Of a DNA stretch of 32,000 nt, positions 2,368 to 25,608 are shown in pieces. The stretch spans positions 1,590,001 to 1,622,000 of the forward strand of contig NZ_CP019633.1 in assembly GCF_001997385.1 (NCBI RefSeq), in the 5' to 3' direction. The number at the start of each line of letters is the position of its first letter. Within the stretch, counting starts at the first letter, position 1. Position numbers and translations under genes: made by a program. Origin of the DNA: Sedimentisphaera cyanobacteriorum. Lineage in GTDB: Bacteria > Planctomycetota > Phycisphaerae > Sedimentisphaerales > Sedimentisphaeraceae. The notes under the pieces were generated by a model. It ran no database searches. It was not told the DNA's origin and saw nothing but the letters and a program-made list of their open reading frames with translations.

Positions 2368-2436
2368 CCTGAACCAGAATAATCCAGAATTATATACGCC
2401 TTAACAATAGGCCGCTTCACCGAAGGCAGAAAAAAA

Positions 2437-4314
2437 ATGATAAAACAGTTCAGAATTTACCTTTCGTTTTTATTGTTATTGATTTCTTCTGCTTTTTCCA
2501 ACGCAGAAATCCCCTGCGAACCGTTCGTTATTACAGTGAAAAACTCCGCAACAGGAGAGCCTGTACCCCTGACAGAGCTCAAAACCATAAACAAAATATC
2601 ATACCTGACTGACAGCAGAGGAAAGATTGCATTTCTCGAGCCCGGGCTTATGGATGCGGGAAAAGTTTTCTTTTATGTTGAAGCTCCTCACGGATACATC
2701 GATCTCGAGAAAGACGGCTTTGGGTACAGAGGCGTCAGCCTCAGCCCTTCCCCGGGCGAGAAAACTGAATTCACACTCGCACCAGACCCCAACACCGCTG
2801 ATTCGACCGAATACAGCAAACTGGAGCATTACAGACTGAAAAACAATTACGTTGCCAGCTCGGATGCATATTTGCCGTTCGAGATAACAGTTCGAGACAG
2901 CGAAACAGGAAGAGGCGTGCCGCTGGTTCAGCTGAAAACTGAGCAGGGATTAACATATCATACCGACAGCGCAGGAAGGATTGCATTCTTCGAACCCGGG
3001 CTTATGAGCGAGAAAATATTTTTCCATATAGACAGCTACGGATATAAAAGCGCTGCGGGAGGAGGTAAAACACTAATCCCCAAACCAAATGGAAACGCTG
3101 TTATCTACTTAGACAGAATAAACATAGCAGAGCGTCTCTACCGAATCACCGGCGGCGGGATTTACAGACACAGCGTTCTTCTCGGCAGAGATGTGCCGCT
3201 GGAAAAGCCCCTGCTTGCAGGGAAGGTGCTCGGGCAGGACACCGTAGCTATGACCGAATACAGGGGCAGGTATTTCTGGCTCTGGGGCGATACCGACCGT
3301 CCTTCTTATCCCCTCGGGAATTTTAAAACATCTTCAGCAGTATCTCTTCTGCAAGGCTCGGGCGGACTGAGCCCTGATGAGGGCATAAATCTCGATTACT
3401 TCACCAACAGCAGCGGCTTCAGCAAGCAGATGTTCCCCCACCCGAAGGGGCAGGTAGTATGGATGAACACCCTTGCAAGCGTTCAGGGAAAGACCGGCGA
3501 GAGACTTATTGCAAGCTATGGGGTGATAAAGGGAAAGGCAAAGGGAGAGAAAGGGATTGCGGTTTTCAATGATTCAAAGCAGGAGTTTGAAACGCTTACG
3601 GTTTTCCAAGATGAGCACAATATAGTTCTCTCAGGTCAGGCCGGCAAAAGAAACGGATACGTTTATGTTAACTGCCCCTACCCCGCTGCGAGAATCAAGG
3701 CTGAGTTAGAAGCTTTCGCAAACCCTCAGGATTACGAGGCTTATACCTGCCTCATGCCCGGAACTGCATTTGAAGGAGAAAAATCGCAAGTTGAAAGGGA
3801 TGAAAACGGCAATATTGTATGGGGCTGGAAGAAAAACGCCTCTCCATTGAACGACAATCAATGGCAGAAGCTGGTGGAGACAGGAAAGGCATCCCCAAAA
3901 GAAGCTTGGAACAGGCTGACTGACGCAAAAACAGGGAAAAAGGTTCAGTTAGCGTTCGGGTCTGCCGGATACAACGCCGATAAGGACTGCTGGATTATGA
4001 CAGGCAATCAGAAATGGGGAGATTCGTTTCTTGGCGAGATATGGATTGCTGCCTCAGAAAATCCGGAAGGGCCTTGGAGAAAGGCGAAGAAAATTGCAAC
4101 TCACGACGCTTCAGGCAATCTTGAAGACTACACATTCTACAACGTATCTTACCACCCTGAATTCAACAGCAGGGGAAATATCTACTTTGAGGGGACATAC
4201 GTTACAACTTACACCAGCAACAAGAACCCAACACCCAGATACGACTACAATCAGATAATGTACAGGCTGGATTTATCAGACCCTCGCCTCGAGGATATCT
4301 GGCCTCAGGAATAA
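2437..4314 (+). CDS. Secreted protein of unknown function with two tandem N-terminal modules and a large C-terminal domain
   Basis: 625-aa ORF with a signal-peptide-like start, MIKQFRIYLSFLLLLISSAFSNA. It carries a duplicated ~57-aa module (listed as separate repeat features). The C-terminal ~400 aa has no motif I can name with confidence. Confidence 0.75.
   Translation: MIKQFRIYLSFLLLLISSAFSNAEIPCEPFVITVKNSATGEPVPLTELKTINKISYLTDSRGKIAFLEPGLMDAGKVFFYVEAPHGYIDLEKDGFGYRGVSLSPSPGEKTEFTLAPDPNTADSTEYSKLEHYRLKNNYVASSDAYLPFEITVRDSETGRGVPLVQLKTEQGLTYHTDSAGRIAFFEPGLMSEKIFFHIDSYGYKSAAGGGKTLIPKPNGNAVIYLDRINIAERLYRITGGGIYRHSVLLGRDVPLEKPLLAGKVLGQDTVAMTEYRGRYFWLWGDTDRPSYPLGNFKTSSAVSLLQGSGGLSPDEGINLDYFTNSSGFSKQMFPHPKGQVVWMNTLASVQGKTGERLIASYGVIKGKAKGEKGIAVFNDSKQEFETLTVFQDEHNIVLSGQAGKRNGYVYVNCPYPAARIKAELEAFANPQDYEAYTCLMPGTAFEGEKSQVERDENGNIVWGWKKNASPLNDNQWQKLVETGKASPKEAWNRLTDAKTGKKVQLAFGSAGYNADKDCWIMTGNQKWGDSFLGEIWIAASENPEGPWRKAKKIATHDASGNLEDYTFYNVSYHPEFNSRGNIYFEGTYVTTYTSNKNPTPRYDYNQIMYRLDLSDPRLEDIWPQE
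2521..2697 (+). repeat. Intragenic protein-level repeat, copy 1
   Basis: aa 29-87: PFVITVKNSATGEPVPLTELKTINKISYLTDSRGKIAFLEPGLMDAGKVFFYVEAPHGY. It aligns without gaps over most of its length to copy 2. Confidence 0.8.
2875..3045 (+). repeat. Intragenic protein-level repeat, copy 2
   Basis: aa 147-203: PFEITVRDSETGRGVPLVQLKTEQGLTYHTDSAGRIAFFEPGLMSEKIFFHIDSYGY. Shared pattern: PF-x-ITV-x-(N/D)S-x-TG-x-x-VPL-x-x-LKT, then TDS-x-G-(K/R)-IAF-x-EPGLM. Confidence 0.8.
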
Positions 4315-4357
4315 GCTTGTCCAGATAGCTTACAGCCCCGCTTTAAACTCGGCAGGT

Positions 4358-4385
4358 TTGCAGAGATTTCCTCCTTCACTATAAT
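4358..4385 (+). promoter_or_regulatory. Putative sigma70-type promoter for the trkA-like gene
   Basis: TTGCAG (4358-4363), a 16-nt spacer, then TATAAT (4380-4385). This lies ~28 nt upstream of ATG 4413, and AAGGGA precedes the start. Confidence 0.35.
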
Positions 4386-4412
4386 AAGCCTTTTATTTTT
4401 GAAGGGAAAGAA

Positions 4413-5093
4413 ATGAAAAAATTCGCTGTTATAGGGCTCGGCAGATTTGGCAAAAAACTGGCCGTTGCGCTTTCAATGAGCGAGGCGGAAGTTATAGCGA
4501 TAGACATAAAACGAGATGAAATAGACTCGATCAGGGATCAGGTAAGCCATGCGGTACGTCTGGACAGCACCGATGAGCAGGCACTGATTTCTCAGGGCGT
4601 TGACAAGGCCGATGTAGCTGTAGTGGGGATAGGCCAGAGAAGAGGCGGCTTTGAGGCGGCTATTCTTACAGTAGTAAACCTGAAGAATATGGGCGTAAAG
4701 AATATCTATGCAAGAGCCATCAATCTGGTATCAGGTCAGGTATTCAAGGCTGTAGGGGCAACGGAAGTAGTTTATCCTGAGATAGAGGCAGCGCAGCGGT
4801 GGGCGTATAAGCTTATCGCCCCGCAGGTTACAGACAAGATTGATTTTGCCCCGGGCTACAGTCTCGCAAGGATAAGCGCAGGCGACAGCTTTCACAGCAA
4901 AACGCTGGTTGACCTTCAGCTCAGAAAGAAATTCAACGTGAACCTAATCGCTATTAAGAGAGGTAAATTTGCGGCAGATGAGAAAGAAGGCAAGATTATT
5001 AACGTACCTATGCCCAAGACAATAATATATAAAGAGGATATTTTGATGGTGTCAGGCTCTGATATTAATCTCGCAAAACTGCCGCAGGATTGA
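4413..5093 (+). CDS. trkA: TrkA/KtrA-type potassium transporter regulatory subunit (RCK N- and C-domains)
   Basis: N-terminal Rossmann motif MKKFAVIGLGRFGKKLA, ~226 aa long, and a C-terminal TrkA-C-like segment (LARISAGDSFHSKTLVDLQLRKKFNVNLIAIKRG). No TrkH/KtrB membrane partner is present in the window. Confidence 0.85.
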   Translation: MKKFAVIGLGRFGKKLAVALSMSEAEVIAIDIKRDEIDSIRDQVSHAVRLDSTDEQALISQGVDKADVAVVGIGQRRGGFEAAILTVVNLKNMGVKNIYARAINLVSGQVFKAVGATEVVYPEIEAAQRWAYKLIAPQVTDKIDFAPGYSLARISAGDSFHSKTLVDLQLRKKFNVNLIAIKRGKFAADEKEGKIINVPMPKTIIYKEDILMVSGSDINLAKLPQD

Positions 5094-5099
5094 GCTTTT

Positions 5100-5999
5100 A
5101 TGAATAATCCACCAAAAATAAGCCCGCTTTATATTACAGACCTCGACGGAACACTGCTGGATGAAAACGCAGCTGTTTCAGATTTCACTAAACACAAACT
5201 CAATGAACTGATATCAGAAGGCTGCAGGATTACCTTAGCAAGCGCAAGAAGCATTGCTTCGATAAGAAAGATTATGCGAGAAGTTGAACTCAACCTTCCT
5301 GTAATTGAAGTGAACGGGGCGTTTATAACCGACATTAACACCGGCGAGCATCTGCTGAGCGAACCAATGGAAGAAGGCGTCTGCAGAGAAATACACAAAA
5401 TCATAGACTTTTATCAGGCAATGCCGTTCATTTTCTGCTGCGCAGAAGGTAAAGACAGAGTTTTCTACGAAGGACTTGCAAATGAAGGTATGCGCTGGTT
5501 TTTAAACGACAAATCAGAAGACCACAGAGGCAGGTCTGAGCAGGTCTTAATTGACGACTCTGTTTTTCAAAATGAAACGGCCGGTTTTATTGTGATAGGC
5601 TCTCAAACTCAAATCGAAAATATAAGGGGTGATATCGAGAGCAGATTCAGCCAAAAAATAGACTGCTACTGCTTTGCAAACCCGTACTGTCCCGAATGGC
5701 ACTGGCTCACTATACACAGCTCACGGGCGAGGAAATCAGAAGGTGTTTTAAGCCTGGCCGAAGAGCTCTGCACAGATTTGAGCGATATAGTGGTTTTCGG
5801 GGACAACACAAACGACCTGCCGATGCTGAGACTCAATTCGCAGGGGCTTCAGAGCGTATGCGTTGCAAATGCAGCTGAATCAATAAAAAGAGAAGCAAGT
5901 CTAATCTGCAAAAGCAACACTGAAGACGGCGTTGTTAAATTTATAGAAAAAGATTTCAGAGAAAAAAACAGAGCTGGCTGTTCAGCAGAATCTGTATGA
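5100..5999 (+). CDS. HAD-superfamily hydrolase, Cof-type (HAD-IIB) phosphatase
   Basis: Motif I is LYITDLDGTLLD. A large cap insertion is present. Motif IV is VVFGDNTNDLPML. Confidence 0.85.
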   Translation: MNNPPKISPLYITDLDGTLLDENAAVSDFTKHKLNELISEGCRITLASARSIASIRKIMREVELNLPVIEVNGAFITDINTGEHLLSEPMEEGVCREIHKIIDFYQAMPFIFCCAEGKDRVFYEGLANEGMRWFLNDKSEDHRGRSEQVLIDDSVFQNETAGFIVIGSQTQIENIRGDIESRFSQKIDCYCFANPYCPEWHWLTIHSSRARKSEGVLSLAEELCTDLSDIVVFGDNTNDLPMLRLNSQGLQSVCVANAAESIKREASLICKSNTEDGVVKFIEKDFREKNRAGCSAESV

Positions 6000-6033
6000 T
6001 TATAGAAAAAACTTTATGCGTTAGGAGGGCAAA

Positions 6034-8787
6034 ATGCCCGAAAAATTTTATCTTATAGACGGCCACGCCTTAATATATTCGAGCTATTTTGCTCCGATGC
6101 GGACAAACCTTTCAAGCCCTTCAGGCGAGCCCACAAAGGCCTCATACATATTCACAACCACACTGCTCGGGCTGATAAACCGCAAAAATCCGGACATGCT
6201 TGCTGTGGCGATGGACAGCAGGGAAAAATCGTTCCGATCTGATATTTTTCCCGAGTATAAGGCGCAGAGGCCTCCAATGCCTGAAGATATGCCTCAGCAG
6301 ATCGAGAGGATTGAGCAGATCCTCGAGGCTATGAAGATTCCTGTTTTGAGAGTGAAAAAATATGAAGCCGATGATATTATTGGAACACTTTCCGAAAAGG
6401 CCTCAAAAGAGGGGTTACAAACCTATATATGCTCCGGCGACAAGGATATGCTGCAGCTTATCGAAAAGAACGTGTTCGTTTACGACATAAAAAAAGATTC
6501 CGTGAAAGATTTGAACTGGCTGGAGACAGAAAAACAGCTCACCCCGGAGCAGTTTCTTGATGCACTTGCTCTTATGGGAGATACTGCAGACAATATCCCG
6601 GGTGTCCCGGATGTTGGGCCGAAAACTGCTGAGCAGTGGATCAGGAAATACGGCTCTCTCGAAAAGCTCTATGAAAATGCCGGCGAGATCAAAGGCAAGA
6701 GAGGCAATTCACTCAGAGACAGCAAAGAAGAGGCCAAGCTCAGCAGAGAGCTTGTGGAGATAAAACGGGACTGTCCTGTTGAGCTGAGAAAGCAGGCATT
6801 CCGGCTTTCGGATTTTGACTACGACAGGCTTGCAGAAATCTTCTACGAACTGGGCTTTCAGAGATTGTATAAGACAGTGGGACTTGAGGGTAAACTCGAA
6901 GAGATCAAAACAGAAACAAAAACAGAAGGCAAGGGAAAGAAAAAGCAGACCGCCCTGTTTGACAATGAATCAGAATATGAAAGTATGAAAGACGGCAGGC
7001 AAAACTACAGGCTTGTGGGGAGCGAAGAAGAGCTTGAAGAGCTTTGCGGGAAGCTTGAGAAACAAACGATTTTCGCAATCGACACCGAAACATCCAGCAT
7101 TGAGCCTATGAAGGCCGAACTGGTTGGTGTAAGCATTTCATGGAAGCAGAACGAAGCCTATTATATACCCGTAAAGGCTGGCGGAAACGCAAAGACCATC
7201 AGCACCGATAAGCTCAAAGAAAAGCTCGGGGGCATCCTCAGAAATCCAAATATAAAGAAGGCCGGGCAAAACGTAAAGTACGATATCGAGGTGCTCTGGA
7301 ATTCAGGGCTGAGCCTTGAAGGCGTGAGCTTTGATACGATGATTGCTTCGTATCTGCTAAATGCCGAGAGAAGCAGCAACTCAATGGATGCTATGGCCAA
7401 GGACTATCTCAACTATGAATGCCAGCCGATAAGCGATTTGATAGGCAAGGGCAAATCGCAGATAACATTCGATAAGGTTCCCGCCGAGGATGCGGCAGAT
7501 TATGCCTGCGAGGATGCAGATATCACATTCAGGCTGTATGAGTATCTCAATCAGAGACTGAACCAGCAGCCAAAGCTTATGAAGCTTTTTGAAGAGCTCG
7601 AGATGCCTCTAATGAAGGTGCTTTGCAGGATGGAGATTGAAGGCGTGAGCATAGACTGTTCGGTGCTTGAGAAGATGAGCAGGGAAATCTCTTCTCAGAT
7701 AGAAACGTTAAGAGATTCAATCTTTGCGCAAACCGGCTCGGTTTTCAATATAGAATCTCCCAAGCAGCTTTCTGAGGTGCTGTTTGACAAGCTCAAGCTC
7801 CCTCAGATAAAGAAACGGAGCACCGATGCATCTGTTCTGGAAAAGCTCGCAGATTTCCATCCGGTGATCGAGGATGTGCAGCAGTTCCGCCAGCTCGTAA
7901 AGCTCAAAGGCACATACATTGACAAGCTCGGGGCTATGGTTAACCCGAAAACAAACCGCCTGCATTGCAGCTTCAACCAGACAATAACCGCCACAGGAAG
8001 GCTGAGTTCATCCAATCCGAACTTGCAGAATATCCCGATACGTACAGATATAGGACGGAAGATTCGCGCTGCGTTTGTGCCGGGGGAGAAAGACGGCGTA
8101 ATATTGAGCGCCGACTACTCACAGGTGGAGCTCAGGCTCCTCGCCCATTTCTCTCAGGACAGCCAGCTTCTGGAAGCATTCAACAGCGATATGGATATAC
8201 ACAGCTTCGTGGCAAGTGAACTTCTCGGGGCAGATACTGAGAACCCAGAGCCCGAGCTGAGAGCCAAGGCAAAGGCTGTGAATTTCGGCATTATTTACGG
8301 CCAAGGGCCTTATGCCCTTTCGCAGTCTCTGGGGATAACACAAAGCGAGGCGAAGGAATTTATCGACAGCTACTTTCATCGGTACAGCTCGATAAAGGAT
8401 TTTATGCAGAGCGTAATCGACGGGGCAAAAACCAACGGTTATGTAAGCACAATACTCGGAAGACGCAGAGCTGTGCCCGGGATAAACTCCTCAGCAAAAC
8501 GCGAGAAATCTTCTGCCGAGCGGATGGCCTTCAATACCACAATACAAGGCTCGGCTGCGGATTTGATTAAGGCTGCTATGATTGAGGTGCAGAATCAAAT
8601 TGACGCAGAAAAACTCAAAGCTAAGATGATTATCCAGATTCACGATGAGCTGGTTTTCGAATGCAGCAGAGACGATGCTGAGCAAAACGCAAAGCTCATC
8701 AGCGAGATAATGGAAAACGCAATAGAGCTCAGGGTTAGACTGAAGGTGGACACCGGCTGGGGCGAAAACTGGATGACCGGGCATTGA
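6034..8787 (+). CDS. polA: DNA polymerase I (5'-3' exonuclease, 3'-5' exonuclease-like and polymerase domains)
   Basis: 917 aa. N-terminal 5' nuclease signature (LIDGHALIYSSYF, GDKDMLQL, GDTADNIPGVPDVGPKTA). Exo I-like FAIDTETSS. Polymerase motif A DYSQVELRLLAH, motif B RAKAKAVNFGIIYG and motif C IQIHDELVFE. Confidence 0.97.
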   Translation: MPEKFYLIDGHALIYSSYFAPMRTNLSSPSGEPTKASYIFTTTLLGLINRKNPDMLAVAMDSREKSFRSDIFPEYKAQRPPMPEDMPQQIERIEQILEAMKIPVLRVKKYEADDIIGTLSEKASKEGLQTYICSGDKDMLQLIEKNVFVYDIKKDSVKDLNWLETEKQLTPEQFLDALALMGDTADNIPGVPDVGPKTAEQWIRKYGSLEKLYENAGEIKGKRGNSLRDSKEEAKLSRELVEIKRDCPVELRKQAFRLSDFDYDRLAEIFYELGFQRLYKTVGLEGKLEEIKTETKTEGKGKKKQTALFDNESEYESMKDGRQNYRLVGSEEELEELCGKLEKQTIFAIDTETSSIEPMKAELVGVSISWKQNEAYYIPVKAGGNAKTISTDKLKEKLGGILRNPNIKKAGQNVKYDIEVLWNSGLSLEGVSFDTMIASYLLNAERSSNSMDAMAKDYLNYECQPISDLIGKGKSQITFDKVPAEDAADYACEDADITFRLYEYLNQRLNQQPKLMKLFEELEMPLMKVLCRMEIEGVSIDCSVLEKMSREISSQIETLRDSIFAQTGSVFNIESPKQLSEVLFDKLKLPQIKKRSTDASVLEKLADFHPVIEDVQQFRQLVKLKGTYIDKLGAMVNPKTNRLHCSFNQTITATGRLSSSNPNLQNIPIRTDIGRKIRAAFVPGEKDGVILSADYSQVELRLLAHFSQDSQLLEAFNSDMDIHSFVASELLGADTENPEPELRAKAKAVNFGIIYGQGPYALSQSLGITQSEAKEFIDSYFHRYSSIKDFMQSVIDGAKTNGYVSTILGRRRAVPGINSSAKREKSSAERMAFNTTIQGSAADLIKAAMIEVQNQIDAEKLKAKMIIQIHDELVFECSRDDAEQNAKLISEIMENAIELRVRLKVDTGWGENWMTGH

Positions 8788-8800
8788 TAAAAAAGTCTTA

Positions 8801-8830
8801 TTGATTGAAAAACTAAAAACTTCGTATAAT
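8801..8830 (+). promoter_or_regulatory. Putative promoter of the AT-rich islet
   Basis: TTGATT (8801-8806), an 18-nt spacer, then TATAAT (8825-8830). This is followed by an AAGGG Shine-Dalgarno (8865-8869) 6 nt before ATG 8876. Confidence 0.35.
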
Positions 8831-8875
8831 ATATAATTGTTTAATAAAATAATTTATTACAACTAAGGGCTAACA

Positions 8876-9028
8876 ATGAAAATATCTGTCTAAAATCTAG
8901 GGCCGATAGAAAAAGCGGAATTTGAGCTGGGGGATTTTACCATAATTTGCGGTAAGAATAATACCGGCAAAACATACGCAACTTACGCCCTTTATGGTTT
9001 TATAGATTTCTTTAACAACCATTACCAT
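8876..9028 (+). other. Disrupted 5' portion of the ATPase gene: ATG plus SD, in-frame TAA at codon 6, then the Walker A segment
   Basis: The sequence reads ATG AAA ATA TCT GTC TAA (stop at 8891-8893). The same frame then stays open into the 9029 ORF, encoding NLGPIEKAEFELGDFTIICGKNNTGKTYATYALYGFIDFFNNHYH. Walker A GKNNTGKT maps to 8951-8974. No ATG, GTG or TTG occurs in frame between 8894 and 9028. Confidence 0.8.
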
Positions 9029-10270
9029 TTGGATGTCCCGGACAATCTTATAAAAAATCTACTGGAAAATGGCTCAGCAGAAATTCCATTAGATAATTAC
9101 TCCAAAAAAAGAAACAGAATACTTTCAGATGCATGCCGAGAATACAAGAAACTTCTTCCCAATGTATTTGCTGCAAATAAGAGGAACTTTGAAAATGTTA
9201 AATTCCTCGTGAGCTTAGATGAGCCTGAAGAATTCCCTGCCAAGGAAATCGAAGTAAATTACGGAACCAATAAAAAGAATATTCTAAAATTAAATAAACC
9301 CAAAAATGCAAATAAAATCACCGCAAGCCTGATGATACAAAATGGAGGCCAAGAACTTCACAAAGACCTTATAGATAATGCGATTGGAGAAACTATCCGT
9401 CAGGTTCTTTTTGGCCATTTATTCCCCAAACCATTCATTATAAGTGAGGAAAGAACTGGAGCTGCAATTTTCCGCTCTGAGCTTAATTTCGCAAGAAACA
9501 GACTGCTGGAAGAAGTTAGCTCTATGGAAAAGACTTCGTTTAACCCTTTTGAACTGATAAACAAAGTTTATTCAGATTATGCACTTCCGGTTAAGCAAAA
9601 CGTTGAATTCATTAGAAATATAGAAAATGTAGCTAAGAGAGAAAGCTTTTTAGCTGTCGAACACCATGATCTGCTCCAAGAATTTGCAGATATTATTGGG
9701 GGAACATACAAAGTAACAAATAGCGATGAATTATACTTTATCCCAAATAAAGATAAAAGAGTAAAGCTGACCATGGATGAAAGCTCAAGCTCTGTTCGTT
9801 CTCTGCTTGATTTAGGTTTTTATCTTAAACATATCTGCCGAAAAGGTGATTTGCTTATGGTGGATGAACCTGAACTTAATATGCACCCGGAAAATCAAAG
9901 AAAGATAGCAAGGCTTTTTGCAAGATTAATCAACCTTGGAATAAAAATCTTTGTAACCACTCACAGCGATTACCTGATAAAGGAGCTGAATTCTTTGATT
10001 ATGTTTGACCCTGAAAACACCTCACATCTAAAGATAATGGAAAAGGCAAATTATTCTAAAAAAGAATCATTATCTTCTTCTAAATTTAAGGTTTATACTG
10101 CTGAAAAAGCGAAAATTCTCAAAGACGGAAATAAACGAAAAACTACAGGCCTGACTTTAATCCCGGCAGATATCGATAAAGAACTTGGAATTGAAGTGGC
10201 CAGTTTTGATGAATCAATTGAAGCAATGGAAAGAATCCAAAACAGCCTTCTTTTTGAATCAGAGGAATAA
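9029..10270 (+). CDS. ABC/SMC-type (AAA_15/AAA_21-like) ATPase; this is the ORF-track minimum, and the real frame begins at 8876 but is interrupted
   Basis: Signature-like ESSSSVRSLLDLGF, Walker B GDLLMVDEPELNMHP and H-loop FVTTHSDYLIKEL. Walker A lies upstream of the called TTG start (see the 8876-9028 feature). Strongly AT-rich and lysine/asparagine-rich. Confidence 0.8.
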   Translation: MDVPDNLIKNLLENGSAEIPLDNYSKKRNRILSDACREYKKLLPNVFAANKRNFENVKFLVSLDEPEEFPAKEIEVNYGTNKKNILKLNKPKNANKITASLMIQNGGQELHKDLIDNAIGETIRQVLFGHLFPKPFIISEERTGAAIFRSELNFARNRLLEEVSSMEKTSFNPFELINKVYSDYALPVKQNVEFIRNIENVAKRESFLAVEHHDLLQEFADIIGGTYKVTNSDELYFIPNKDKRVKLTMDESSSSVRSLLDLGFYLKHICRKGDLLMVDEPELNMHPENQRKIARLFARLINLGIKIFVTTHSDYLIKELNSLIMFDPENTSHLKIMEKANYSKKESLSSSKFKVYTAEKAKILKDGNKRKTTGLTLIPADIDKELGIEVASFDESIEAMERIQNSLLFESEE

Positions 10271-10272
10271 AT

Positions 10273-10827
10273 TTGCTGCAGACTGATACACTTAAAAGCA
10301 TCTTTCATAGAAAATTTACCTTGGATTTAAATGTTTCCCAAGGGAAAAATACAGCTGTTTTAAGGGAATCTGGAAAAGAAGCCAAACTAAAACATGTGAA
10401 ACTCAGCAACATACCGGATAATTCATTAATACTGAAAATAGATGCTTGCAAGTGTCCTGAATATATTTTCAGTTCAACAAAAGACCATAACATAAGATGC
10501 GATTACCTTCTGATATATCAAAATACAGAAGAATCGCCCCCTGATTTGGTTTTCATAGAGCTTAAGTCGAAAAAACTCAAAGGCAGCAAGTATTCAAGTC
10601 AATTCAAAAGTTCAGTTTGTCTATTTGAATATATAAACTCCATCCTTATAAATTTCTATGAGATAAAATCCTTATCTAAAGCAAAAAAACATTTTATATT
10701 GCTGCACAAAAAAAGAATAGCTAAAACCAACACAAGAAAAAAACGGGAATATTTCAGCACCGATAGTACACCTGAGAAACCTTTGAGCATAAATGCCGGC
10801 AGTTCACCTATTTTTTTAAGAACATAA
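10273..10827 (+). CDS. Small basic protein with a PD-(D/E)xK-like nuclease motif, translationally coupled to the ATPase
   Basis: TTG start 2 nt after the ATPase stop, with GAGGA (10262-10266) 6 nt upstream. 184 aa with no internal Met. RCDYLLIY (D77, nt 10501-10503), then 18 aa, then DLVFIELKSKK (E96-L-K98, nt 10558-10566). The C-terminal third is very basic (KKRIAKTNTRKKREY). Confidence 0.6.
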   Translation: MLQTDTLKSIFHRKFTLDLNVSQGKNTAVLRESGKEAKLKHVKLSNIPDNSLILKIDACKCPEYIFSSTKDHNIRCDYLLIYQNTEESPPDLVFIELKSKKLKGSKYSSQFKSSVCLFEYINSILINFYEIKSLSKAKKHFILLHKKRIAKTNTRKKREYFSTDSTPEKPLSINAGSSPIFLRT

Positions 10828-10837
10828 GAATAAGCGT

Positions 10838-12223
10838 TTGATTATGGCAAAAGATTACGATGCAGTGATAATAGGAGCGGGGCCGGGAGGCTATGCCGCA
10901 GGGATAAAATGCGCAAGAAACGGCCTCAAAACCGCTGTTATAGAGCGAGACAAGCCCGGAGGGACGTGTTTGAATTACGGCTGCATACCTTCGAAGGCGC
11001 TGCTTGGGTCTGCGGAGTTTATAATTAAAGCCAGACACGCAAACCTGATGGGGCTTGATGTATCTTTCGGCGAGCCGAACTGGGGCAGGATTCAATCCCG
11101 CAAAGATGCAATAGTAAAGAGCTTCACATCCGGCGTTGAAGGGCTGCTGCGTTCGAACGGAGCGGAGCTGATTATAGATGATGCCGAAGTAAAGGAAAAT
11201 GGCTCGGTGAGGCTGAAAAATGCCGGCAGAGAAATCAGCTGCGAACACATAATTCTGGCAAGCGGGTCTGAGCCAAAAGGGATTCCCTCAATCCCATTCG
11301 ACGGGAAAAAGGTAATTTCCAGCAAAGAGGCTTTGAACCTTAAAGAAATACCCAAATCCATGGTAATAATCGGCGGCGGGGTAATCGGCTGCGAGATGGG
11401 CTGTCTTTATGCCTCAATGGGCTGTAAAACCACAATTATCGAAGCCCTTCCGAGACTGCTTCCAAGGGAGGACGATTGGGCAGGCAGGCTGCTTGAGAAG
11501 GAATTCAGAAAGATAAACCTTAAAGCCCTTACTGATGTTAAAGTGAGCTCTGCGGAAACCTCAGGCGATCTATGCAGGCTTCATCTATCCTCAGGCGAGG
11601 TGCTTGAGAGCGAGAAGGTTTTAGTTGCTGTGGGAAGAAGGCCTGTAATAAGCGAGGAAACCGCCAAGGCCTTAAGCCTTGAGCTCAGCGTCGGCGAGGT
11701 GGTAATAGATGAGAAAATGCAGACATCCGCTAAAGGCGTTTACGCACTCGGAGACCTTGCCGGGAAAACATACCTCGCTCACGGCGCATATTTGGAGGCG
11801 GAGATCCTCGCAGACATTCTCGCGGGCAAAGGCGGGCAAATCAAAGACTACCATCTGGTTCCAAGGGCTGTATATTCCTTCCCCGAAGCGGCAGGCGTCG
11901 GGCTTACAGAGAAAGAGGCTCGGGAGAAAGGCATTGATTACAGCGTTACCAAATCGGGGTTTCTCGCAAACGGAAGAAGCCTTGCCCATAATCAGACAGC
12001 CGGCGAGGTGCGGATTATAAAAGACAAAGCTGACGGCCGTATAGTCGGAGTGAGCATGGTAGGAGAATCGGCAACTGAAATGATCAGCACAGCGAGGCTG
12101 ATTATTGGTACAAACGAAAAGGCCGGCGAGGTTAGCTTCCCCCATCCTACAGTATCAGAAGTGCTCAAGGAGGCTTGGATGGGTGCATACGGCGAGAGCA
12201 TTCATCTGCCGCCCCAAAAATAG
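10838..12223 (+). CDS. lpdA: Dihydrolipoyl dehydrogenase (E3, pyridine nucleotide-disulfide oxidoreductase class I)
   Basis: FAD motif VIIGAGPGGY, redox disulfide GGTCLNYGCIPSKALL, NAD motif VIIGGGVIGCEMG and C-terminal His-Glu dyad FPHPTVSEVLKEA. The ORF-track start is TTG 10838. ATG 10844 (MAKDYDAV) is the more likely start. Confidence 0.93.
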   Translation: MIMAKDYDAVIIGAGPGGYAAGIKCARNGLKTAVIERDKPGGTCLNYGCIPSKALLGSAEFIIKARHANLMGLDVSFGEPNWGRIQSRKDAIVKSFTSGVEGLLRSNGAELIIDDAEVKENGSVRLKNAGREISCEHIILASGSEPKGIPSIPFDGKKVISSKEALNLKEIPKSMVIIGGGVIGCEMGCLYASMGCKTTIIEALPRLLPREDDWAGRLLEKEFRKINLKALTDVKVSSAETSGDLCRLHLSSGEVLESEKVLVAVGRRPVISEETAKALSLELSVGEVVIDEKMQTSAKGVYALGDLAGKTYLAHGAYLEAEILADILAGKGGQIKDYHLVPRAVYSFPEAAGVGLTEKEAREKGIDYSVTKSGFLANGRSLAHNQTAGEVRIIKDKADGRIVGVSMVGESATEMISTARLIIGTNEKAGEVSFPHPTVSEVLKEAWMGAYGESIHLPPQK

Positions 12224-12346: not shown

Positions 12347-14365
12347 TCATTTTTTCGATGACACCTCTGCAAGGGCATTATTGAGCTCTTCAACAGCCTT
12401 TGCTGAATCGCACTTGCTGATAATCTTATCATCAATGCGCACATTCGGCCCTTTATCGCATTTCTCAAAGCAGAAGGTGGCCTGAATGTTCACCTTGTCC
12501 TCGAGGTCTTTCTGGTGGACATAGTCCATCATATCCTGCAGAATTTTCCTTGAGCCCCTGAGATGACAGCTCGTACCCACGCATACGTTCACAGAGATTT
12601 TGGCCTCATCTTCGCTGCCTATTTCGATGTGATCGCTTTCGATCCTTCTGCGGGTTTTGTACTTCGTATGCAGGAGTTCATGGGCAGTATGGCTGCCGGG
12701 TTCGCCTCCGAGGGCATCGGCATAACAGCTCTGCAGATAAGGGTTGTCCTGAGATTTATGCAGCTGTAAACCTTTATCGCTCACATAAAGCCCGTTCTGA
12801 CGCTTCTGCTTGTAGTTGTAGTCTTTGCTGAAAGGCTGGCCTGCCCCTGCAATGCACCCGCCCGGACAAGACATCACTTCCACAAAATCGTAGTCGCACT
12901 CACCTGCCCTTATCATCTCTGCCACCTTGCGGGCATTTTTCAAACCGTGCACTACTGCGAGCTTGAGCTTAATATCTCCGATTTCAATCTCAGTTTCTCG
13001 TATATCTTCATTCCCCCGCACCTGATTGTAGTCTGTCTCGGCGACCTTTTTGCCCGTAAGCTTTTCTGCAGCAAATCTGAGCACTGCCTCGCTCACGCCT
13101 CCGGTTACCCCGAAGATAACTCCAGCGCCGGTTTTAAAGCCCATGGGCATATCGAGAGATTCGGGAGTTAGGCCGCTGAAATCGATCCCCGCTTCCTTGA
13201 TCATCATCCCCAGCTCCTGAGTAGTGAGCACTACATCCACATCTCTGTGGCCGTCTGTCTTGAATTCATCCCTCTGGGCTTCAAATTTTTTGGCCGTGCA
13301 GGGCATAATTGAAACAAGGTACAAATCTTCATTCTTCACATTGAGCTGTTCGGGGAGTGTCTTGCGTGCAACAGAGCCGAACATCTGCTGAGGGCTCCTG
13401 CAGGAAGAGAGATTGCCCAGAAGGTCAGGATAGAACTGCTCTGCAAACTTAACCCAAGCCGGGCAGCACGAGGTGAAAAGCGGCAGTTTTTCGCCCTTGG
13501 TCTTTCTATCGATAAATTCAGTTGATTCCTCCAGCACTGTAAGGTCTGCGGCGAATGAAGTGTCGTAAACCTGATCAAACCCGAGCAGCTTCATCGCAGC
13601 TACGAGCCTTCCCGTTGACACCTCGCCGGGCTCAAGGCCGAACATCTCGCCTATAGCTACCCTGATTGCAGGAGCTATCTGAACCGCTACAGTTTTTTTC
13701 TTGTCGTTTAGCGCATTCCAAACCTTCTCTGTTTCAAATTTTGGCGTTATAGAACCTGTGGGGCAGACACCTGCACACATTCCGCAGTAAACGCATTCTA
13801 CCGCATCAAGATTTTTGAGAAACGCAGGCGAGACAATCGTATCTGCTCCTCGGTTTGCAAAATCAATCGCCCCCACGCTCTGGATCTCCTCACAAGCACG
13901 GACGCAGTCGCCGCAGAGGACGCATTTATTCGGATCGCGAATAAGAGACGGACTGCTTGAATCCACAGGCTTTGGCTTATACTCCTCAGAGAAGGGAATC
14001 TCCCTTATCCCGAGCCTGTTGGAGAGATCCTGAAGCCTGCAAGCTCCGGACTTTGAGCAGGTTGTGCAGGTTTGGTGATGATTTGCAAGCAGGAGCTTGA
14101 GATACACCTTTCGCATCTCGCGCAGCTCGTTTGTATTGGTGCTAACTACCATACCTTCCTGAGGCGTTGTGCTGCATGATGTAACGATGCCCATTCCCTC
14201 AATCTCCACAACGCAGAGCCTGCAAGCTCCGTAGATGCTCAGCTCTGAGTGGTAGCAGAATGTCGGCAGGTCTATGCCTGTTCGTCTTATTATTTCAAGC
14301 AGGTTTCTTTCGTTTTTGATTTCAACCCTGCGGTTGTCTATTGTTAAGTATTTCTTATCAGCCAT
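12347..14365 (-). CDS. hydA: [FeFe]-hydrogenase catalytic subunit HydA of a trimeric NuoE/NuoF-type (bifurcating-type) enzyme, with an extra C-terminal thioredoxin-like [2Fe-2S] domain
   Basis: N-terminal 2Fe-2S and His-ligated cluster region (CYHSELSIYGACRLCVVE, HHQTCTTCSKSGACRLQ) and two ferredoxin motifs (CVLCGDCVRAC, CVYCGMCAGVCP). H-cluster motifs FTSCCPAW, MPCTAKKFE and EVMSCPGGCIAGAGQP. The C-terminal CVGTSCHLRG...CFEKCDKGPNV is also present. The ORF track starts at TTG 14380, but the first ATG (MADKKYL) is at 14365, 4 nt after the hydB stop. Confidence 0.95.
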   Translation of the reverse strand: MADKKYLTIDNRRVEIKNERNLLEIIRRTGIDLPTFCYHSELSIYGACRLCVVEIEGMGIVTSCSTTPQEGMVVSTNTNELREMRKVYLKLLLANHHQTCTTCSKSGACRLQDLSNRLGIREIPFSEEYKPKPVDSSSPSLIRDPNKCVLCGDCVRACEEIQSVGAIDFANRGADTIVSPAFLKNLDAVECVYCGMCAGVCPTGSITPKFETEKVWNALNDKKKTVAVQIAPAIRVAIGEMFGLEPGEVSTGRLVAAMKLLGFDQVYDTSFAADLTVLEESTEFIDRKTKGEKLPLFTSCCPAWVKFAEQFYPDLLGNLSSCRSPQQMFGSVARKTLPEQLNVKNEDLYLVSIMPCTAKKFEAQRDEFKTDGHRDVDVVLTTQELGMMIKEAGIDFSGLTPESLDMPMGFKTGAGVIFGVTGGVSEAVLRFAAEKLTGKKVAETDYNQVRGNEDIRETEIEIGDIKLKLAVVHGLKNARKVAEMIRAGECDYDFVEVMSCPGGCIAGAGQPFSKDYNYKQKRQNGLYVSDKGLQLHKSQDNPYLQSCYADALGGEPGSHTAHELLHTKYKTRRRIESDHIEIGSEDEAKISVNVCVGTSCHLRGSRKILQDMMDYVHQKDLEDKVNIQATFCFEKCDKGPNVRIDDKIISKCDSAKAVEELNNALAEVSSKK

Positions 14366-14369
14366 TTTT

Positions 14370-16265
14370 CTACATCCCAATTACTGCGTTAAATTTACAA
14401 GCTTCTGCGCACGCTCCGCATTTGATGCACTTATCCTGATCGATTACGTGGGGCTGCTTTTTCTCGCCCTCAATCGCATCTACCGGACATTTCTTCTTGC
14501 AGAGCCCGCAGCCGATACATTTCTCCGGATCGATCTCAGGCATTGCGAAGGCCTTGCACTGCCCTGCCGGGCATTTCCCGTGCACTACGTGAGCGGTATA
14601 TTCATCGCGGAAGTATTTCAGCGTAGTAAGCACGGGGTTAGGTGCGGTTTTCCCGAGGCCGCAAAGCGAGCCTTTGGATACCGCGCTTGCCACCCTTTCG
14701 AGCAGGTCGATCGTTTCCAGTGTTGCCCTTGCCTCGATGATATCCTCAAGGAGCCTGAGCATCTGTTTTGTACCCTCTCGGCACGGGACGCACTTTCCGC
14801 AGGATTCGTTCTGCGTAAACTGCATAAAGAAGTGCGCAATCTGCACCATACAGGTTTTCTTGTTCATCACCACAAGCCCGCCTGAGCCCACCATTGCACC
14901 GATATTCCGCAGGTTGTCGTAATCTATAGGCAGATCGAGGTGTTCTTCTGTGAGGCAGCCGCCTGAAGGGCCTCCGCACTGAACGGCCTTGAAGCCGTCT
15001 TCGAATATATTCCCGTCGTCGTCTGTTACGCCGCCTCCGATGCCGAATACAATCTCTCGCAGAGTTAGGCCGAAGGGCACTTCGATAAGACCGGTATTTG
15101 CAACGTGGCCGGTGAGAGCGAAAGTCTTCGTGCCCGCTGAGTTCTCCGTACCCATAGACTTGAAATACTCTGCCCCGTGCTGGATTATCAGCGGAACTGT
15201 TGCGAGCGTTTCCACATTGTTAATGCAGGTTGGCCTGCCCCAGAGCCCGCTTTGTGCGGGAAATGGAGGCTTTGGATTCGGCATACCCCTGCGCCCTTCA
15301 ATGGAAGCGATGAGGGCTGTTTCCTCGCCACAGACAAATGCGCCGGCTCCTTCAAGCACCTTTATCTTAAGGCTCTCTCCAGTGCCGAATACATCATCGC
15401 CCAATATGCCCAGAGCCTCGGCATCTCTTACCGCCTCGCTGACCCTGCTTACGGCAAGCGGATACTCCGCACGAACATAAACATAGGCCTCATCTGCTCC
15501 GATAGCCCTTGCAGCAATCATCATCCCTTCTAACACTCGGTGCGGATTGCCTTCCATAAGGCTTCTGTCCATAAAAGCGCCCGGATCGCCTTCGTCGCCG
15601 TTGCAGATTACATATTTCTTCTCGCCGGGCTGGGGGAGAGTGAGCGCCCATTTTTTCCCTGTGGGGAATCCGCCCCCGCCTCTGCCTCGCAGACCAGATT
15701 CGAGAACTTCATCATATATCTGCTGAGGCTGCATCTGTGTAAACGCTTTTCTCGCTGCGAAGTATCCCTCATGTGAGATATACTCTTCTATATTGCAGGC
15801 ATCAATCTTGCCGCACTCATCGAGAACCGTACGTTTCTGCCTTGTATAAAAGGGGATGTCCTTGGTGGTTTTGCAGGTGTTTCCGGTAGCCGGATCGGAG
15901 TATAGAAGTCTTTCCACAGGCTTATCATCAGCTACTGAGGATTCAACAATTTCAGCAGCATCCTCCGGCTTCACCCGCACATAATGATATTCCTGCGGAC
16001 GCACCGTTACCAGCGGCCCAACCTGACAGAACCCGCGGCAGCCTGTTTTGGCCATAACCACATCAGCATCCTTATCAGATTCGAGCTTTACCGAAACGTT
16101 TAAGTCTTTCTTTTCCACCTGCTCTTTTATAGCCTCAAAGACCTTCAAAGACCCGTTTGCAACGCAGGCCGTACCTGCGCAGACCACAATCTGCCTCTGG
16201 GTTTTCTCAAGGGCTTTGAGGTAGTTTTCTTTTATTGATTCCAAATTTACGGTTGCCGCAATCAT
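14370..16265 (-). CDS. hydB: Hydrogenase NADH-binding flavoprotein subunit HydB (NuoF-like)
   Basis: N-terminal thioredoxin-like module (CAGTACVANG...GCRGFCQVGP), FMN/NADH region GLRGRGGGGFPTGKKW and the NuoF cluster ESCGKCVPCREG. C-terminal 2x[4Fe-4S] ferredoxin motifs are CIGCGLCKKKCP and CIKCGACAEAC. Its start overlaps the hydC stop (TGATG at 16263-16267). Confidence 0.95.
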   Translation of the reverse strand: MIAATVNLESIKENYLKALEKTQRQIVVCAGTACVANGSLKVFEAIKEQVEKKDLNVSVKLESDKDADVVMAKTGCRGFCQVGPLVTVRPQEYHYVRVKPEDAAEIVESSVADDKPVERLLYSDPATGNTCKTTKDIPFYTRQKRTVLDECGKIDACNIEEYISHEGYFAARKAFTQMQPQQIYDEVLESGLRGRGGGGFPTGKKWALTLPQPGEKKYVICNGDEGDPGAFMDRSLMEGNPHRVLEGMMIAARAIGADEAYVYVRAEYPLAVSRVSEAVRDAEALGILGDDVFGTGESLKIKVLEGAGAFVCGEETALIASIEGRRGMPNPKPPFPAQSGLWGRPTCINNVETLATVPLIIQHGAEYFKSMGTENSAGTKTFALTGHVANTGLIEVPFGLTLREIVFGIGGGVTDDDGNIFEDGFKAVQCGGPSGGCLTEEHLDLPIDYDNLRNIGAMVGSGGLVVMNKKTCMVQIAHFFMQFTQNESCGKCVPCREGTKQMLRLLEDIIEARATLETIDLLERVASAVSKGSLCGLGKTAPNPVLTTLKYFRDEYTAHVVHGKCPAGQCKAFAMPEIDPEKCIGCGLCKKKCPVDAIEGEKKQPHVIDQDKCIKCGACAEACKFNAVIGM

Positions 16266-16762
16266 CAGGCCTTCTCCTTTTCAAGAATTTCTTCGATAAG
16301 ATTTCCCGCCTTCTCCGGCGTTACAAGCCCGTAAACATCTTCGTTTATAGTAATCACCGGAGCCATCCCGCATGCACCGAGACAGCTGACAGTTTCCACT
16401 GTAAAAAGCTGGTCGTCTGTTGTGCATTTTTCCTTGTCAAGGCCGAGCTTTCCCTGCATTGCCTCAAGGATCGCTATCGAGCCCTTTACATGGCAGGCTG
16501 TTCCGTCGCATACATGGATTACATACTTGCCTTTCGGCTCAAGTGCGAAGTGTGCGTAAAAACTTGCCACTCCATAAACCTTTGCCGGCGGCATTTTCAG
16601 ACTTGTTGCAATATATGTTAAAATTTCTTCCGGCAGATACCTGTACTCCCTCTGCACTGCGTGGAGTATTGGTATGAGATTTGATTTGTCTGCCTGATGT
16701 TCTTCAAGTATCCGGCAAACCTTCTCAAACTTCTGCTTTTTACAGGCTTCACAAGACATCAA
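16265..16762 (-). CDS. hydC: Hydrogenase [2Fe-2S] subunit HydC (NuoE-like)
   Basis: 165 aa with the NuoE pattern YVIHVCDGTACHVKG...VSCLGACGMAPVITINE. Confidence 0.93.
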   Translation of the reverse strand: MMSCEACKKQKFEKVCRILEEHQADKSNLIPILHAVQREYRYLPEEILTYIATSLKMPPAKVYGVASFYAHFALEPKGKYVIHVCDGTACHVKGSIAILEAMQGKLGLDKEKCTTDDQLFTVETVSCLGACGMAPVITINEDVYGLVTPEKAGNLIEEILEKEKA

Positions 16763-16804: not shown

Positions 16805-17998
16805 TTATATCAGCTCCATATCAGAGCTTTTTAAATGCTTGTTATTGAGCGTATCAACAATTTCTCTGAGCATATTTCTTCTAATATCCAAAGACGCCGG
16901 CAAGTTCGGGTCCTGGTGGGCTTCGTTAATCTTCGTTCCCACGATAAAATGTATGCTGTCGCTCTCGAGCAGGTATTCCACTAATTTTTCAGCGGGATTT
17001 TTTGCAGGCGGGTCAATTTCGCCTCTGCTTTTTAGCAGTTCAAGCGCCCTGCTCAACGTTACCGTACCCTCAGTAACCAGCTCTGCGCCTTCCATCTTAG
17101 AGGCCGGAGGGATATAGGGATCGGTCCAGCTGAGGTCTATCTTCACATCCCTTTTCGTCTGATTTGCGATAATCCTCGCAGTTGTTCCTCCGCAGACAAG
17201 CTTTCTTCCGCTGAACTCTTCAAACTTTGAAGCGAGCAGGCCGTCATTGCTCTGATTGTACGGAGGGCCTGTTATCACAAGCGTTCTGCGGGGATGCCTG
17301 AAAGAGATTACTGCTGCGCTTATATCGTCTTTGGCTTTATTGCCGTCGTTCTTCAGAGCCCTTTCAACAATCCTGCGGGCAAGCTTCCTCGCTGAAACAG
17401 ATTCTAACCCGCCCAGCTGAGCGGTTATATATTCCTCAGCTCCCTGAGATGTCCAGCCAAGAGGCATAGAGTCTGTTCCCATCCCGGACTGGGTAACGCC
17501 GTCGCTGCAGAAAAAAAGCTTATCACCTTTGACCGCATCAAAGCTTGTATATTTGAGCTCTCTCTGTCCTGCTGAGCCGGCATCTATCCTGTGGCTGCTT
17601 CTTTCCAGCTCAATCTTTCTGCCGTTCCTGAGAAGAAGGCAGCAGGGATTGTCATATTCAATTATCCGCACCCGCCCCTCATAACTCACATCAACTATGG
17701 TGAAAGTGGAATACCCCACTTTCCGAACGCTGCATACCGGCAGAGTGGCCATAATGATCTCTGAGGCGCGCTTGAGATCTATATCGCTCTTGATGTAGTT
17801 CATTGCCATCGTAGAGGTTAGGGTAGCAAGGACGTTGGCCTTAATCCCGCTTCCGAGCCCGTCAGCGAGTATGCAGATAGTTCTCTGGCCGTCTTCTGTC
17901 CTGCTGGAATAAAAAACATCGCCGGGAGAGCCCATACCTTCCTTGCTCTTCTGGAAAGAGCCGACCTCTACGAAGAAATCATTCTTTGTGAGCATCAT
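16805..17998 (-). CDS. PP2C/SpoIIE-family Ser/Thr phosphatase with a conserved ~160-aa C-terminal domain of unknown function
   Basis: PPM motifs SPGDVF, ILADGLGSGIKA, FFCSDGVTQSG and KDDISAAVISF. These are followed by VCGGTTARIIA, VTEGTVTLSRA and IVGTKINEAHQ. The ATG ATG start overlaps the hydS stop by 20 nt and AGGGG sits just upstream. Confidence 0.85.
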   Translation of the reverse strand: MMLTKNDFFVEVGSFQKSKEGMGSPGDVFYSSRTEDGQRTICILADGLGSGIKANVLATLTSTMAMNYIKSDIDLKRASEIIMATLPVCSVRKVGYSTFTIVDVSYEGRVRIIEYDNPCCLLLRNGRKIELERSSHRIDAGSAGQRELKYTSFDAVKGDKLFFCSDGVTQSGMGTDSMPLGWTSQGAEEYITAQLGGLESVSARKLARRIVERALKNDGNKAKDDISAAVISFRHPRRTLVITGPPYNQSNDGLLASKFEEFSGRKLVCGGTTARIIANQTKRDVKIDLSWTDPYIPPASKMEGAELVTEGTVTLSRALELLKSRGEIDPPAKNPAEKLVEYLLESDSIHFIVGTKINEAHQDPNLPASLDIRRNMLREIVDTLNNKHLKSSDMELI

Positions 17999-23304: not shown

Positions 23305-23365
23305 TATTCTTTAATTTCGACACAACGCACCTTCAGAACTGACAAATACACCTGCGCAACGAAAT

Positions 23366-24022: not shown

Positions 24023-24053
24023 TATACTTTCCTTTTCAGCTTTTTATAGAAGA

Positions 24054-25544: not shown

Positions 25545-25608
25545 ATTAAATCCTGTTCTATATCTCTATTAGCAATGTTAACACGTTTTCATCATCTTGG
25601 AATCAACT

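Follow-up and report, generated by a model that had tools for sequence, protein, structure and literature searches.

The 32,000-nucleotide (nt) window analyzed here, positions 1,590,001 to 1,622,000 of the Sedimentisphaera cyanobacteriorum contig NZ_CP019633.1, carries an islet of two genes between polA and lpdA. The pair is best explained as an anti-phage system of the PD-T4-4/PDC-M47 family, an ABC ATPase gene followed by a small PD-(D/E)xK-type nuclease gene, which was acquired before S. cyanobacteriorum and S. salicampi split and whose ATPase gene was recently disrupted at codon 6. The probability of this reading is roughly 0.85. The ATPase gene (8876..10270) comprises 464 codons, with a stop at codon 6, and ends with TAA at 10268-10270. 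The nuclease gene (10273..10827) encodes 184 residues and starts from a TTG at 10273, leaving a gap of 2 nt. These genes and all features given below for the islet are on the + strand, and the module totals 1952 bp. The G+C content is 0.30-0.37 over 8750-10849 versus 0.45-0.54 in polA and lpdA (300-nt windows). The G+C content of third codon positions (GC3) is 0.31 in the ATPase and nuclease genes, 0.57 in polA and 0.54 in lpdA. Because GC3 is also low in both islet genes, the drop is more than an effect of amino-acid composition. A preliminary description of this DNA, made from the letters alone, had noted the collapse in G+C and two co-directional genes 2 nt apart, with the same stop, ribosome-binding site and TTG start; all of these stand.

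Both proteins match profiles of known defence families. With codon 6 repaired in the query, the ATPase matches the PDC-M47A profile of PADLOC (PADLOC-DB v2.0.0) with E 5.3e-201 over residues 1-461 (profile 1-459 of 461), and two PD-T4-4_A profiles, each from end to end, with E 8.7e-154 (profile 1-459 of 460) and 1.1e-74. The nuclease matches PDC-M47B with E 1.7e-82 (profile 1-167 of 174), four further PDC-M47B profiles, and three PD-T4-4_B profiles with E 3.7e-12 (27-172 of 190), 1.3e-11 and 2.9e-6. The B protein has no generic domain, so its PADLOC matches are not an artefact of one. Both proteins of the S. salicampi pair have PADLOC matches over their full length too, and its nuclease fits the whole PDC-M47B profile (E 7e-122). 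The two genes are adjacent and co-directional, in the A-then-B order of the family. Pfam finds AAA_15 (E 9e-24, residues 2-368) and AAA_21 (residues 291-368) in the ATPase and nothing else. Thus the profile searches proposed in the preliminary description agree with its view of a defence-type module with a small PD-(D/E)xK-like effector, as do the conservation of the pair and that of the catalytic residues.

The relation between the two names can also be read from the profiles. The pair of a P2-like Vibrio phage and that of a cyanobacterial plasmid match the same profile sets in another rank order, the plasmid pair being of the PDC-M47 type. Since these pairs cross-match both sets of hidden Markov models (HMMs), PD-T4-4 and PDC-M47 are sub-clades of one family. 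PDC-M47 provides the best-scoring model for both Sedimentisphaera proteins. It differs from PD-T4-4 in being a computational candidate, yet its ATPase profiles cross-match PD-T4-4_A over the full length, which makes it a sub-clade and not a separate kind.

The preliminary description had gone further and suggested that the module may be an undescribed variant. A pair outside every named family would agree with the lack of a Pfam or NCBIfam family for the 184-residue protein, with the absence of a significant structural neighbour for the nuclease, and with the fact that neither protein has a closely related solved structure. However, the PDC-M47 and PD-T4-4 models are covered completely or nearly so by the matches, the S. 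salicampi nuclease fits its profile from end to end, and the pairing of an ABC ATPase with a PD-(D/E)xK nuclease is already in the literature as PD-T4-4 and WonAB. The suggestion is refuted by the profile coverage, and a new system is hardly tenable here. The Sedimentisphaera pair joins a known, catalogued and partly characterised family.

The ATPase belongs to the OLD clade of ABC ATPases, and long inserts separate its Walker A from its signature motif. Walker A, or P-loop, is GKNNTGKT (8951..8974), with the lysine at K32; G26 and N28-T33 are invariant in 24 homologues. The ABC-signature-like DESSSSVRSLL (9776..9808) has D301, S303-S305, V307-S309 and L311 invariant in the same set. Walker B is LLMVDEPE (9851..9874), with D330 and E331. 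Residues D330-P338 are invariant among the homologues, but position 336, Leu in all of them, is Met in the window. The H-loop is TTHSD (9956..9970), in which T361, T362, S364 and D365 are invariant and H363 is at least 90% conserved. The full ABC/SMC-type motif set first recognized from the letters therefore falls on invariant or near-invariant columns. Two substitutions of the window protein lie at columns that are invariant in the 24 homologues, the sister species included. They are A191E (9446-9448), in the SAERTGAAIF motif two residues before a conserved Arg, and L336M (9881-9883), in DEPELNLHPENQ.

The structural neighbours of the ATPase are those of its clade. The model of the S. salicampi ATPase (predicted local distance difference test, pLDDT, 80.8) matches PtuA (of Septu and of type I-A retrons), retron Eco8, OLD, Rad50 and SMC heads, with probability 1.00. 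Sequence profiles reach UvrA, OLD and PtuA in the C-terminal lobe only. In a profile search against PDB sequences no close relative of the ATPase was found to be solved, and the nearest structures were PtuA and OLD. NCBIfam gave no match above cut-off for either protein. FtsE scored 27.9 against a cut-off of 264.85, and kinship with FtsE or with an ABC transporter was dismissed because the NCBIfam matches fall far short.

The second gene encodes a PD-(D/E)xK-type nuclease effector of the PDC-M47B/PD-T4-4_B type, whose product in the window is identical to L21SP3_01281 of S. cyanobacteriorum, annotated 'hypothetical'. The TTG start is also used in S. salicampi, the N-terminus aligns with those of homologues, and M1 is at least 90% conserved. 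The family holds 396 representatives at 50% clustering. The catalytic Asp, D77 of the RCDY motif (10501..10503), is invariant in 97 homologues and directly precedes strand 78-82 of the model. E96-L-K98 of the FIELKS motif (10558..10566) lies at the end of strand 91-98, with K98 invariant and E96 at least 90% conserved in the same homologues. The pattern of D77 and E96-L-K98 recognized earlier in gene 2 is therefore conserved across the family. E32, C116 and Y120 are also at least 90% conserved among the 97 aligned members. The AlphaFold (AF2) model has a pLDDT of 91.8 and a predicted template modelling score (pTM) of 0.89. Its elements run strand, D77 with strand 78-82, strand 91-98 with ExK, helix 106-129 and strand 138-145, which is the order of the PD-(D/E)xK core. 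The nuclease assignment is well supported by motifs, topology and literature, and is not proven by fold statistics.

PD-T4-4 was found by functional selection in E. coli (ECOR58; Vassallo et al. 2022), where it is listed as 'ATPase, nuclease', a validated system of two open reading frames (ORFs) and 1973 bp in an element resembling an integrative and conjugative element (ICE-like; PMC9519451). Its parts were classed as an ABC ATPase and a PD-(D/E)xK nuclease (PMC10952713; bioRxiv 10.1101/2024.01.29.577857). EcPD-T4-4 protects against T4 and builds higher-order complexes (Ragucci et al., bioRxiv 10.1101/2025.07.10.664194). It left all 11 DNA substrates uncut, and RNA or tRNA is named by the authors as a possible target (bioRxiv 10.1101/2025.07.10.664194). 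The module in the window resembles PD-T4-4 as an A-then-B two-gene operon, with an AAA_15/ABC ATPase of about 460 residues, a nuclease of about 190 residues and a total length of 1952 bp versus 1973 bp. It differs in its B protein, which is best described by PDC-M47B and has only a distant relation to the E. coli type, in the planctomycete host, in its housekeeping site as opposed to an ICE-like element, and in its interrupted ATPase gene. A blastn search of complete E. coli genomes with the module gave no match.

The second relative with experimental data is WonAB, from the WASA-1 prophage of Vibrio cholerae (Adams et al. 2025). It combines an OLD-type ABC ATPase with a variant PD-(D/E)xK nuclease and is similar to PD-T4-4 (PMC12137116). 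Neither gene is dispensable for its defence, nor are the ATPase motifs or the nuclease Lys, and its activation arrests translation while genomic DNA is not degraded (PMC12137116). The nuclease is unstable and dependent on the ATPase; overproduced WonB is toxic, and this toxicity needs the ATPase and its activity (PMC12137116). By the description in PMC12137116, WonAB is like the present pair as a two-gene operon of an OLD-type ABC ATPase and a small variant PD-(D/E)xK nuclease. The essential K34, R182, E300, H333 and K71 of WonAB would correspond, by motif order and not by alignment, to K32, R193, E331, H363 and K98 here. The inserts of WonA are shorter, and WonB is smaller (16 kDa). An operon described as 'OLD-ABC ATPase + novel REase' (restriction endonuclease) by Krishnan, Burroughs, Iyer and Aravind (2020, NAR), as relayed in PMC12137116, would also fit a nuclease missed by standard profile and fold searches.

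Septu, PARIS, Gabija and OLD share with the pair an ABC ATPase sensor of the same broad clade, and the logic of an ATPase sensor with a nuclease effector. In PADLOC the ATPase cross-matches AriA (1e-25), Old (4e-15), PtuA (8e-11) and GajA (1e-9), at least 175 orders of magnitude more weakly than PDC-M47A. The effectors differ: a separate small PD-(D/E)xK protein here, versus HNH in PtuB, Toprim/DUF4435 in AriB and a fused Toprim in OLD and GajA. Septu (PtuAB) was rejected, as gene 2 has no HNH match in Pfam or PADLOC and PtuA profiles match the ATPase with E 8e-11 or weaker. PARIS (AriAB) was rejected, as gene 2 has no AriB or Toprim match and the AriA match reflects the shared AAA_15 domain. 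OLD and Gabija GajA were rejected, as the 464-residue ATPase has AAA_15 and AAA_21 only and the Old and GajA profiles match only its C-terminal ABC lobe (about residues 323-377). No helicase partner such as GajB is present beside the ATPase-nuclease pair.

The toxicity of overproduced WonB, together with the AAA_21 match ('putative AbiEii toxin'), could suggest a type IV toxin-antitoxin or AbiEii-like pair, in which the ATPase merely neutralises a toxic nuclease. The AAA_21 match, however, covers the generic C-terminal ABC lobe alone. The WonAB nuclease needs the ATPase and its activity to be toxic, which rules out simple sequestration. In the window the ATPase gene is broken and the nuclease gene intact, an unexpected state were the ATPase an essential antitoxin. 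A toxin-antitoxin pair is thus barely credible.

Homologues 48-58% identical to the ATPase were found in the genomes of at least 485 species. Their hosts include Desulfobacterota, Gammaproteobacteria, many cyanobacteria, Omnitrophota, Verrucomicrobiota, Chloroflexota, Acidobacteriota and Methanosarcinaceae. In 78 of the 80 testable loci an ORF of the nuclease family lies directly 3' of the ATPase gene on the same strand, its start between -41 and +6 nt from the ATPase stop, so that the co-occurrence expected of a true pair is found. The two other loci (L042 and L074) have an ATPase without a recognisable nuclease ORF downstream, and the ATPase ORF of L074 is shortened (3475-4518), which points to the system having decayed elsewhere too. 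In 68 of 70 loci (L008-L087) the module has a lower G+C than its own flanks, by 0.07 on average and by up to 0.19, while the flanks range from 0.31 to 0.72. The low G+C is therefore a trait of the family and not peculiar to the Sedimentisphaera genome. The scatter across phyla and the AT-richness relative to the flanks fit horizontal spread.

The neighbours of these loci are mixed. Some loci adjoin defence-related genes, namely those for BrxC of BREX (3 loci), ResIII, PIN, Fic and Uma2, and many adjoin housekeeping genes. Close relatives of the pair are rare in plasmid and phage collections. Vibrio phage 1.202.O (NC_048066.1; L088 2501-4532), which is P2-like, carries a PD-T4-4-type pair between its repressor and integrase genes. 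Its ATPase has 469 residues (PD-T4-4_A, E 6e-185), and its partner, annotated hypothetical, has 209 residues (PD-T4-4_B, E 7e-18). In seven Nostocales loci (L029, L031, L036, L038, L040, L044 and L064; about 2000-7950 in each) the pair is directly downstream of mfd/TRCF (about 1150 residues) on the same strand. This placement echoes that behind polA in Sedimentisphaera.

The history of the pair in Sedimentisphaera can be followed through S. salicampi, the sister species. There, too, the pair stands between polA and lpdA with the gene order unchanged, and its ATPase is intact at 464 residues. The amino-acid identity between the window and S. salicampi is 85% for the ATPase (no gaps), 73% for the nuclease, 92% for polA and 89% for lpdA. 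The synonymous divergence (dS) is 0.75 for the ATPase and 1.12 for the nuclease, and 0.61-0.88 for the flanking genes. The same site in the sister and a dS like that of the flanking core genes show that the pair is older than the S. cyanobacteriorum/S. salicampi split. The ratio of nonsynonymous to synonymous divergence (dN/dS), 0.11 for the ATPase and 0.13 for the nuclease, indicates purifying selection on both genes. The horizontal acquisition put forward in the preliminary description thus agrees with the scatter and AT-richness of the family, but the acquisition was not recent. In the three closest LpdA loci outside Sedimentisphaera (about 54% identity), lpdA has no polA next to it. Since the distant relatives lack this adjacency, an empty polA-lpdA site could not be observed, and the outgroups are uninformative on it.

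The pair could have been domesticated for a housekeeping role linked to DNA replication or repair, in place of phage defence, and fixed by polA in Sedimentisphaera and by mfd in Nostocales. Vertical inheritance and purifying selection between polA and lpdA in two species, the tight packing without a terminator before lpdA, and the position directly downstream of mfd in seven loci would agree with such a role. However, the seven Nostocales loci are probably one ancestral insertion, vertically inherited. The family is patchy across phyla and occurs also on a plasmid and a P2-like phage; its other loci adjoin BREX, PIN, Fic, ResIII or unrelated metabolic genes. The foreign base composition is retained, the distant Sedimentisphaerales relatives examined show no copy linked to polA-lpdA, and the gene is broken in this genome without visible consequence. 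Domestication is therefore very unlikely. In another reading, which we consider improbable, the pair would be a defence system turned into a fixed, vertically inherited part of the core genome of the genus, and the parallel placement by mfd in Nostocales might reflect, instead of chance, a functional or regulatory link to replication or repair genes, such as the sensing of intermediates. In a related reading, the intact nuclease gene could be kept for a role independent of the broken ATPase.

The ATPase gene of the window contains an in-frame TAA at codon 6 (8891..8893), a nonsense codon seen in the translation. The codon is CAA (Gln) in S. salicampi, and the family column holds K, Q, N, S or D. 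A single C-to-T change separates the two species at this codon. The repair of codon 6 called for in the preliminary description is thus justified. The first canonical start 3' of the stop is TTG 9029, beyond Walker A. GenBank annotates from this TTG a 413-residue 'cell division ATP-binding protein FtsE' without Walker A, a name that is a mis-annotation. RefSeq/PGAP annotates a 454-residue 'AAA family ATPase' from the non-canonical ATA 8906, with Walker A kept. Both products lack residues 1-10, which hold the conserved M1, I3, N7, L8 and G9 and the first strand of the model. Since GenBank and RefSeq both skip the first 10 codons, the stop is present in the deposited sequence. The Walker A, Walker B and H-loop motifs are all there, but the TAA interrupts the frame that carries them, making this a broken copy of a family gene. 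A relative-rate count of the ATPase gives 15 window-derived versus 19 sister-derived substitutions. The window lineage has not accelerated, which makes the nonsense change recent, unless it is an error.

The defence system is probably inactive in this strain, by analogy with WonAB, whose nuclease needs an active ATPase. The remaining probability may be divided between sequencing error and weak re-initiation. In a rival reading the module is fully functional here, the TAA being a sequencing or assembly error, or a restart just downstream (e.g. at ATA 8906) giving a working ATPase. The other 458 codons are intact without excess lineage-specific change, the RefSeq/PGAP protein keeps Walker A, and the nuclease gene is intact with all conserved residues kept. 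Against these, the stop stands in the deposited sequence, since neither annotation includes the first 10 codons. An ATA start would be very poor, a restart would lose the conserved residues and first beta strand of positions 1-10, and A191E and L336M alter otherwise invariant columns. A functional module in this genome is possible, though doubtful.

How the intact system would work we infer from EcPD-T4-4 and WonAB. The ATPase would dimerise and bind the nuclease in a complex. It would sense a phage cue, and ATP binding and hydrolysis would license the nuclease. The nuclease would then cut nucleic acid and abort infection, and bulk DNA is a less likely target than an RNA of the translation apparatus. 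As for its history, the pair entered the Sedimentisphaera lineage before the two species split and has since been kept under purifying selection. A single C-to-T change turned CAA into TAA at codon 6 in the sequenced S. cyanobacteriorum genome. The outcome is most likely a recently inactivated system, or at best a poorly initiated ATPase lacking its first 10 residues.

Several points weigh against a PD-T4-4/PDC-M47 pair with a disrupted ATPase. The match of the nuclease to the validated PD-T4-4_B is only moderate, as its E-value and partial profile coverage indicate. PDC-M47 is itself a computational candidate ('PDC' stands for candidate), and no paper in the literature collection searched names it. 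Foldseek returned nothing significant for the nuclease model, the best E being 0.13 in PDB and 0.008 in BFVD, so the restriction-endonuclease fold rests on motifs, topology and literature. In favour of this fold, the weak top matches are largely PD-(D/E)xK enzymes, namely BspD6I, DdmD, FokI, MunI, MspJI, VRR-NUC and UL24. Sub-threshold Pfam matches of family members are likewise mostly PD-(D/E)xK (HSDR_N, NERD, MutH, SfsA, PDDEXK_9, SduA_C, DpnII and VRR_NUC). Pfam assigns no family to the 184-residue protein, and the nuclease family profile found nothing among PDB sequences. The confident model with the core order agrees with the fold expected earlier for this protein, but its matches to restriction-type nucleases are weak and not significant. 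The islet is surrounded by housekeeping genes without mobility genes or repeats, outside any defence island; direct repeats, tRNA genes, an integrase and Rfam families were looked for in its flanks as marks of an integrated element, and none was found. The stop might stem from a sequencing error or from a mutation of the laboratory strain, and, as the 454-residue RefSeq product from ATA 8906 suggests, some ATPase might still be made.

The value of a PD-T4-4/PDC-M47 assignment is mainly in annotation, since 'FtsE', AAA ATPase and 'hypothetical' can be replaced by a defence pair of this type with a nonsense-disrupted ATPase. The pair is also a planctomycete example of long-term vertical retention of the family at a housekeeping site. 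The intact allele of S. salicampi and the broken one of S. cyanobacteriorum form a natural pair, a possible control for functional work on the family. The islet by itself raises no new question.

A promoter-like site, TTGATT and TATAAT with an 18-nt spacer (8801..8830), lies inside the 88-nt spacer between polA and the ATPase gene and matches the consensus at 10 of 12 positions. Such sites are no more frequent in the region than in shuffles, and the site is only a candidate. GAGGA (10262..10266), within the end of the ATPase gene and 6 nt 5' of the TTG, is the ribosome-binding site of the nuclease gene, which is probably translationally coupled to the ATPase gene. The start of lpdA is likely ATG 10844 (459 residues, as in NCBI) and not TTG 10838. 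The gap from the nuclease gene to this ATG is 16 nt in the window and 2 nt in S. salicampi (locus L001 10571-10578). No terminator-like site was seen between the nuclease gene and lpdA. With a near-zero gap and no such site, transcription of lpdA probably comes through the defence pair or starts at a promoter within it. At their C-termini the two nucleases differ in length, with 184 residues in the window and 190 in S. salicampi (window 10795-10827 versus L001 10540-10573). The DNA just before lpdA, ATAAGAATAAGCGTTTGATTATGG, is conserved between the species, yet the nuclease frames end at TAA versus TGA. The different stops point to a small indel near the 3' end of the nuclease gene.

Elsewhere in the window, a 625-residue ORF (2437-4314, +) without a Pfam family is flanked by genes for a Ser/Thr kinase and for TrkA; its S. 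salicampi counterpart has 624 residues and no Pfam match either. A large-subunit gene resembling that of [FeFe]-hydrogenase (12347-14380, -) has NuoF-like (14370-16265) and NuoE-like (16265-16762) partners. Further Fe_hyd_lg_C genes are at 17979-19739 (-), 27126-28853 (+) and 30289-31710 (+), and two SpoIIE-type phosphatase genes stand alongside hydrogenase-like genes at 16805-17998 (-) and 28925-30034 (+). A glycan-degradation cluster (21424-26733, -) includes two GH29 alpha-L-fucosidase genes, at 21424-23304 (with CBM6) and 25609-26733. The cluster also contains a GDSL esterase gene (23366-24022) and a 496-residue ORF (24054-25544) without a Pfam match.

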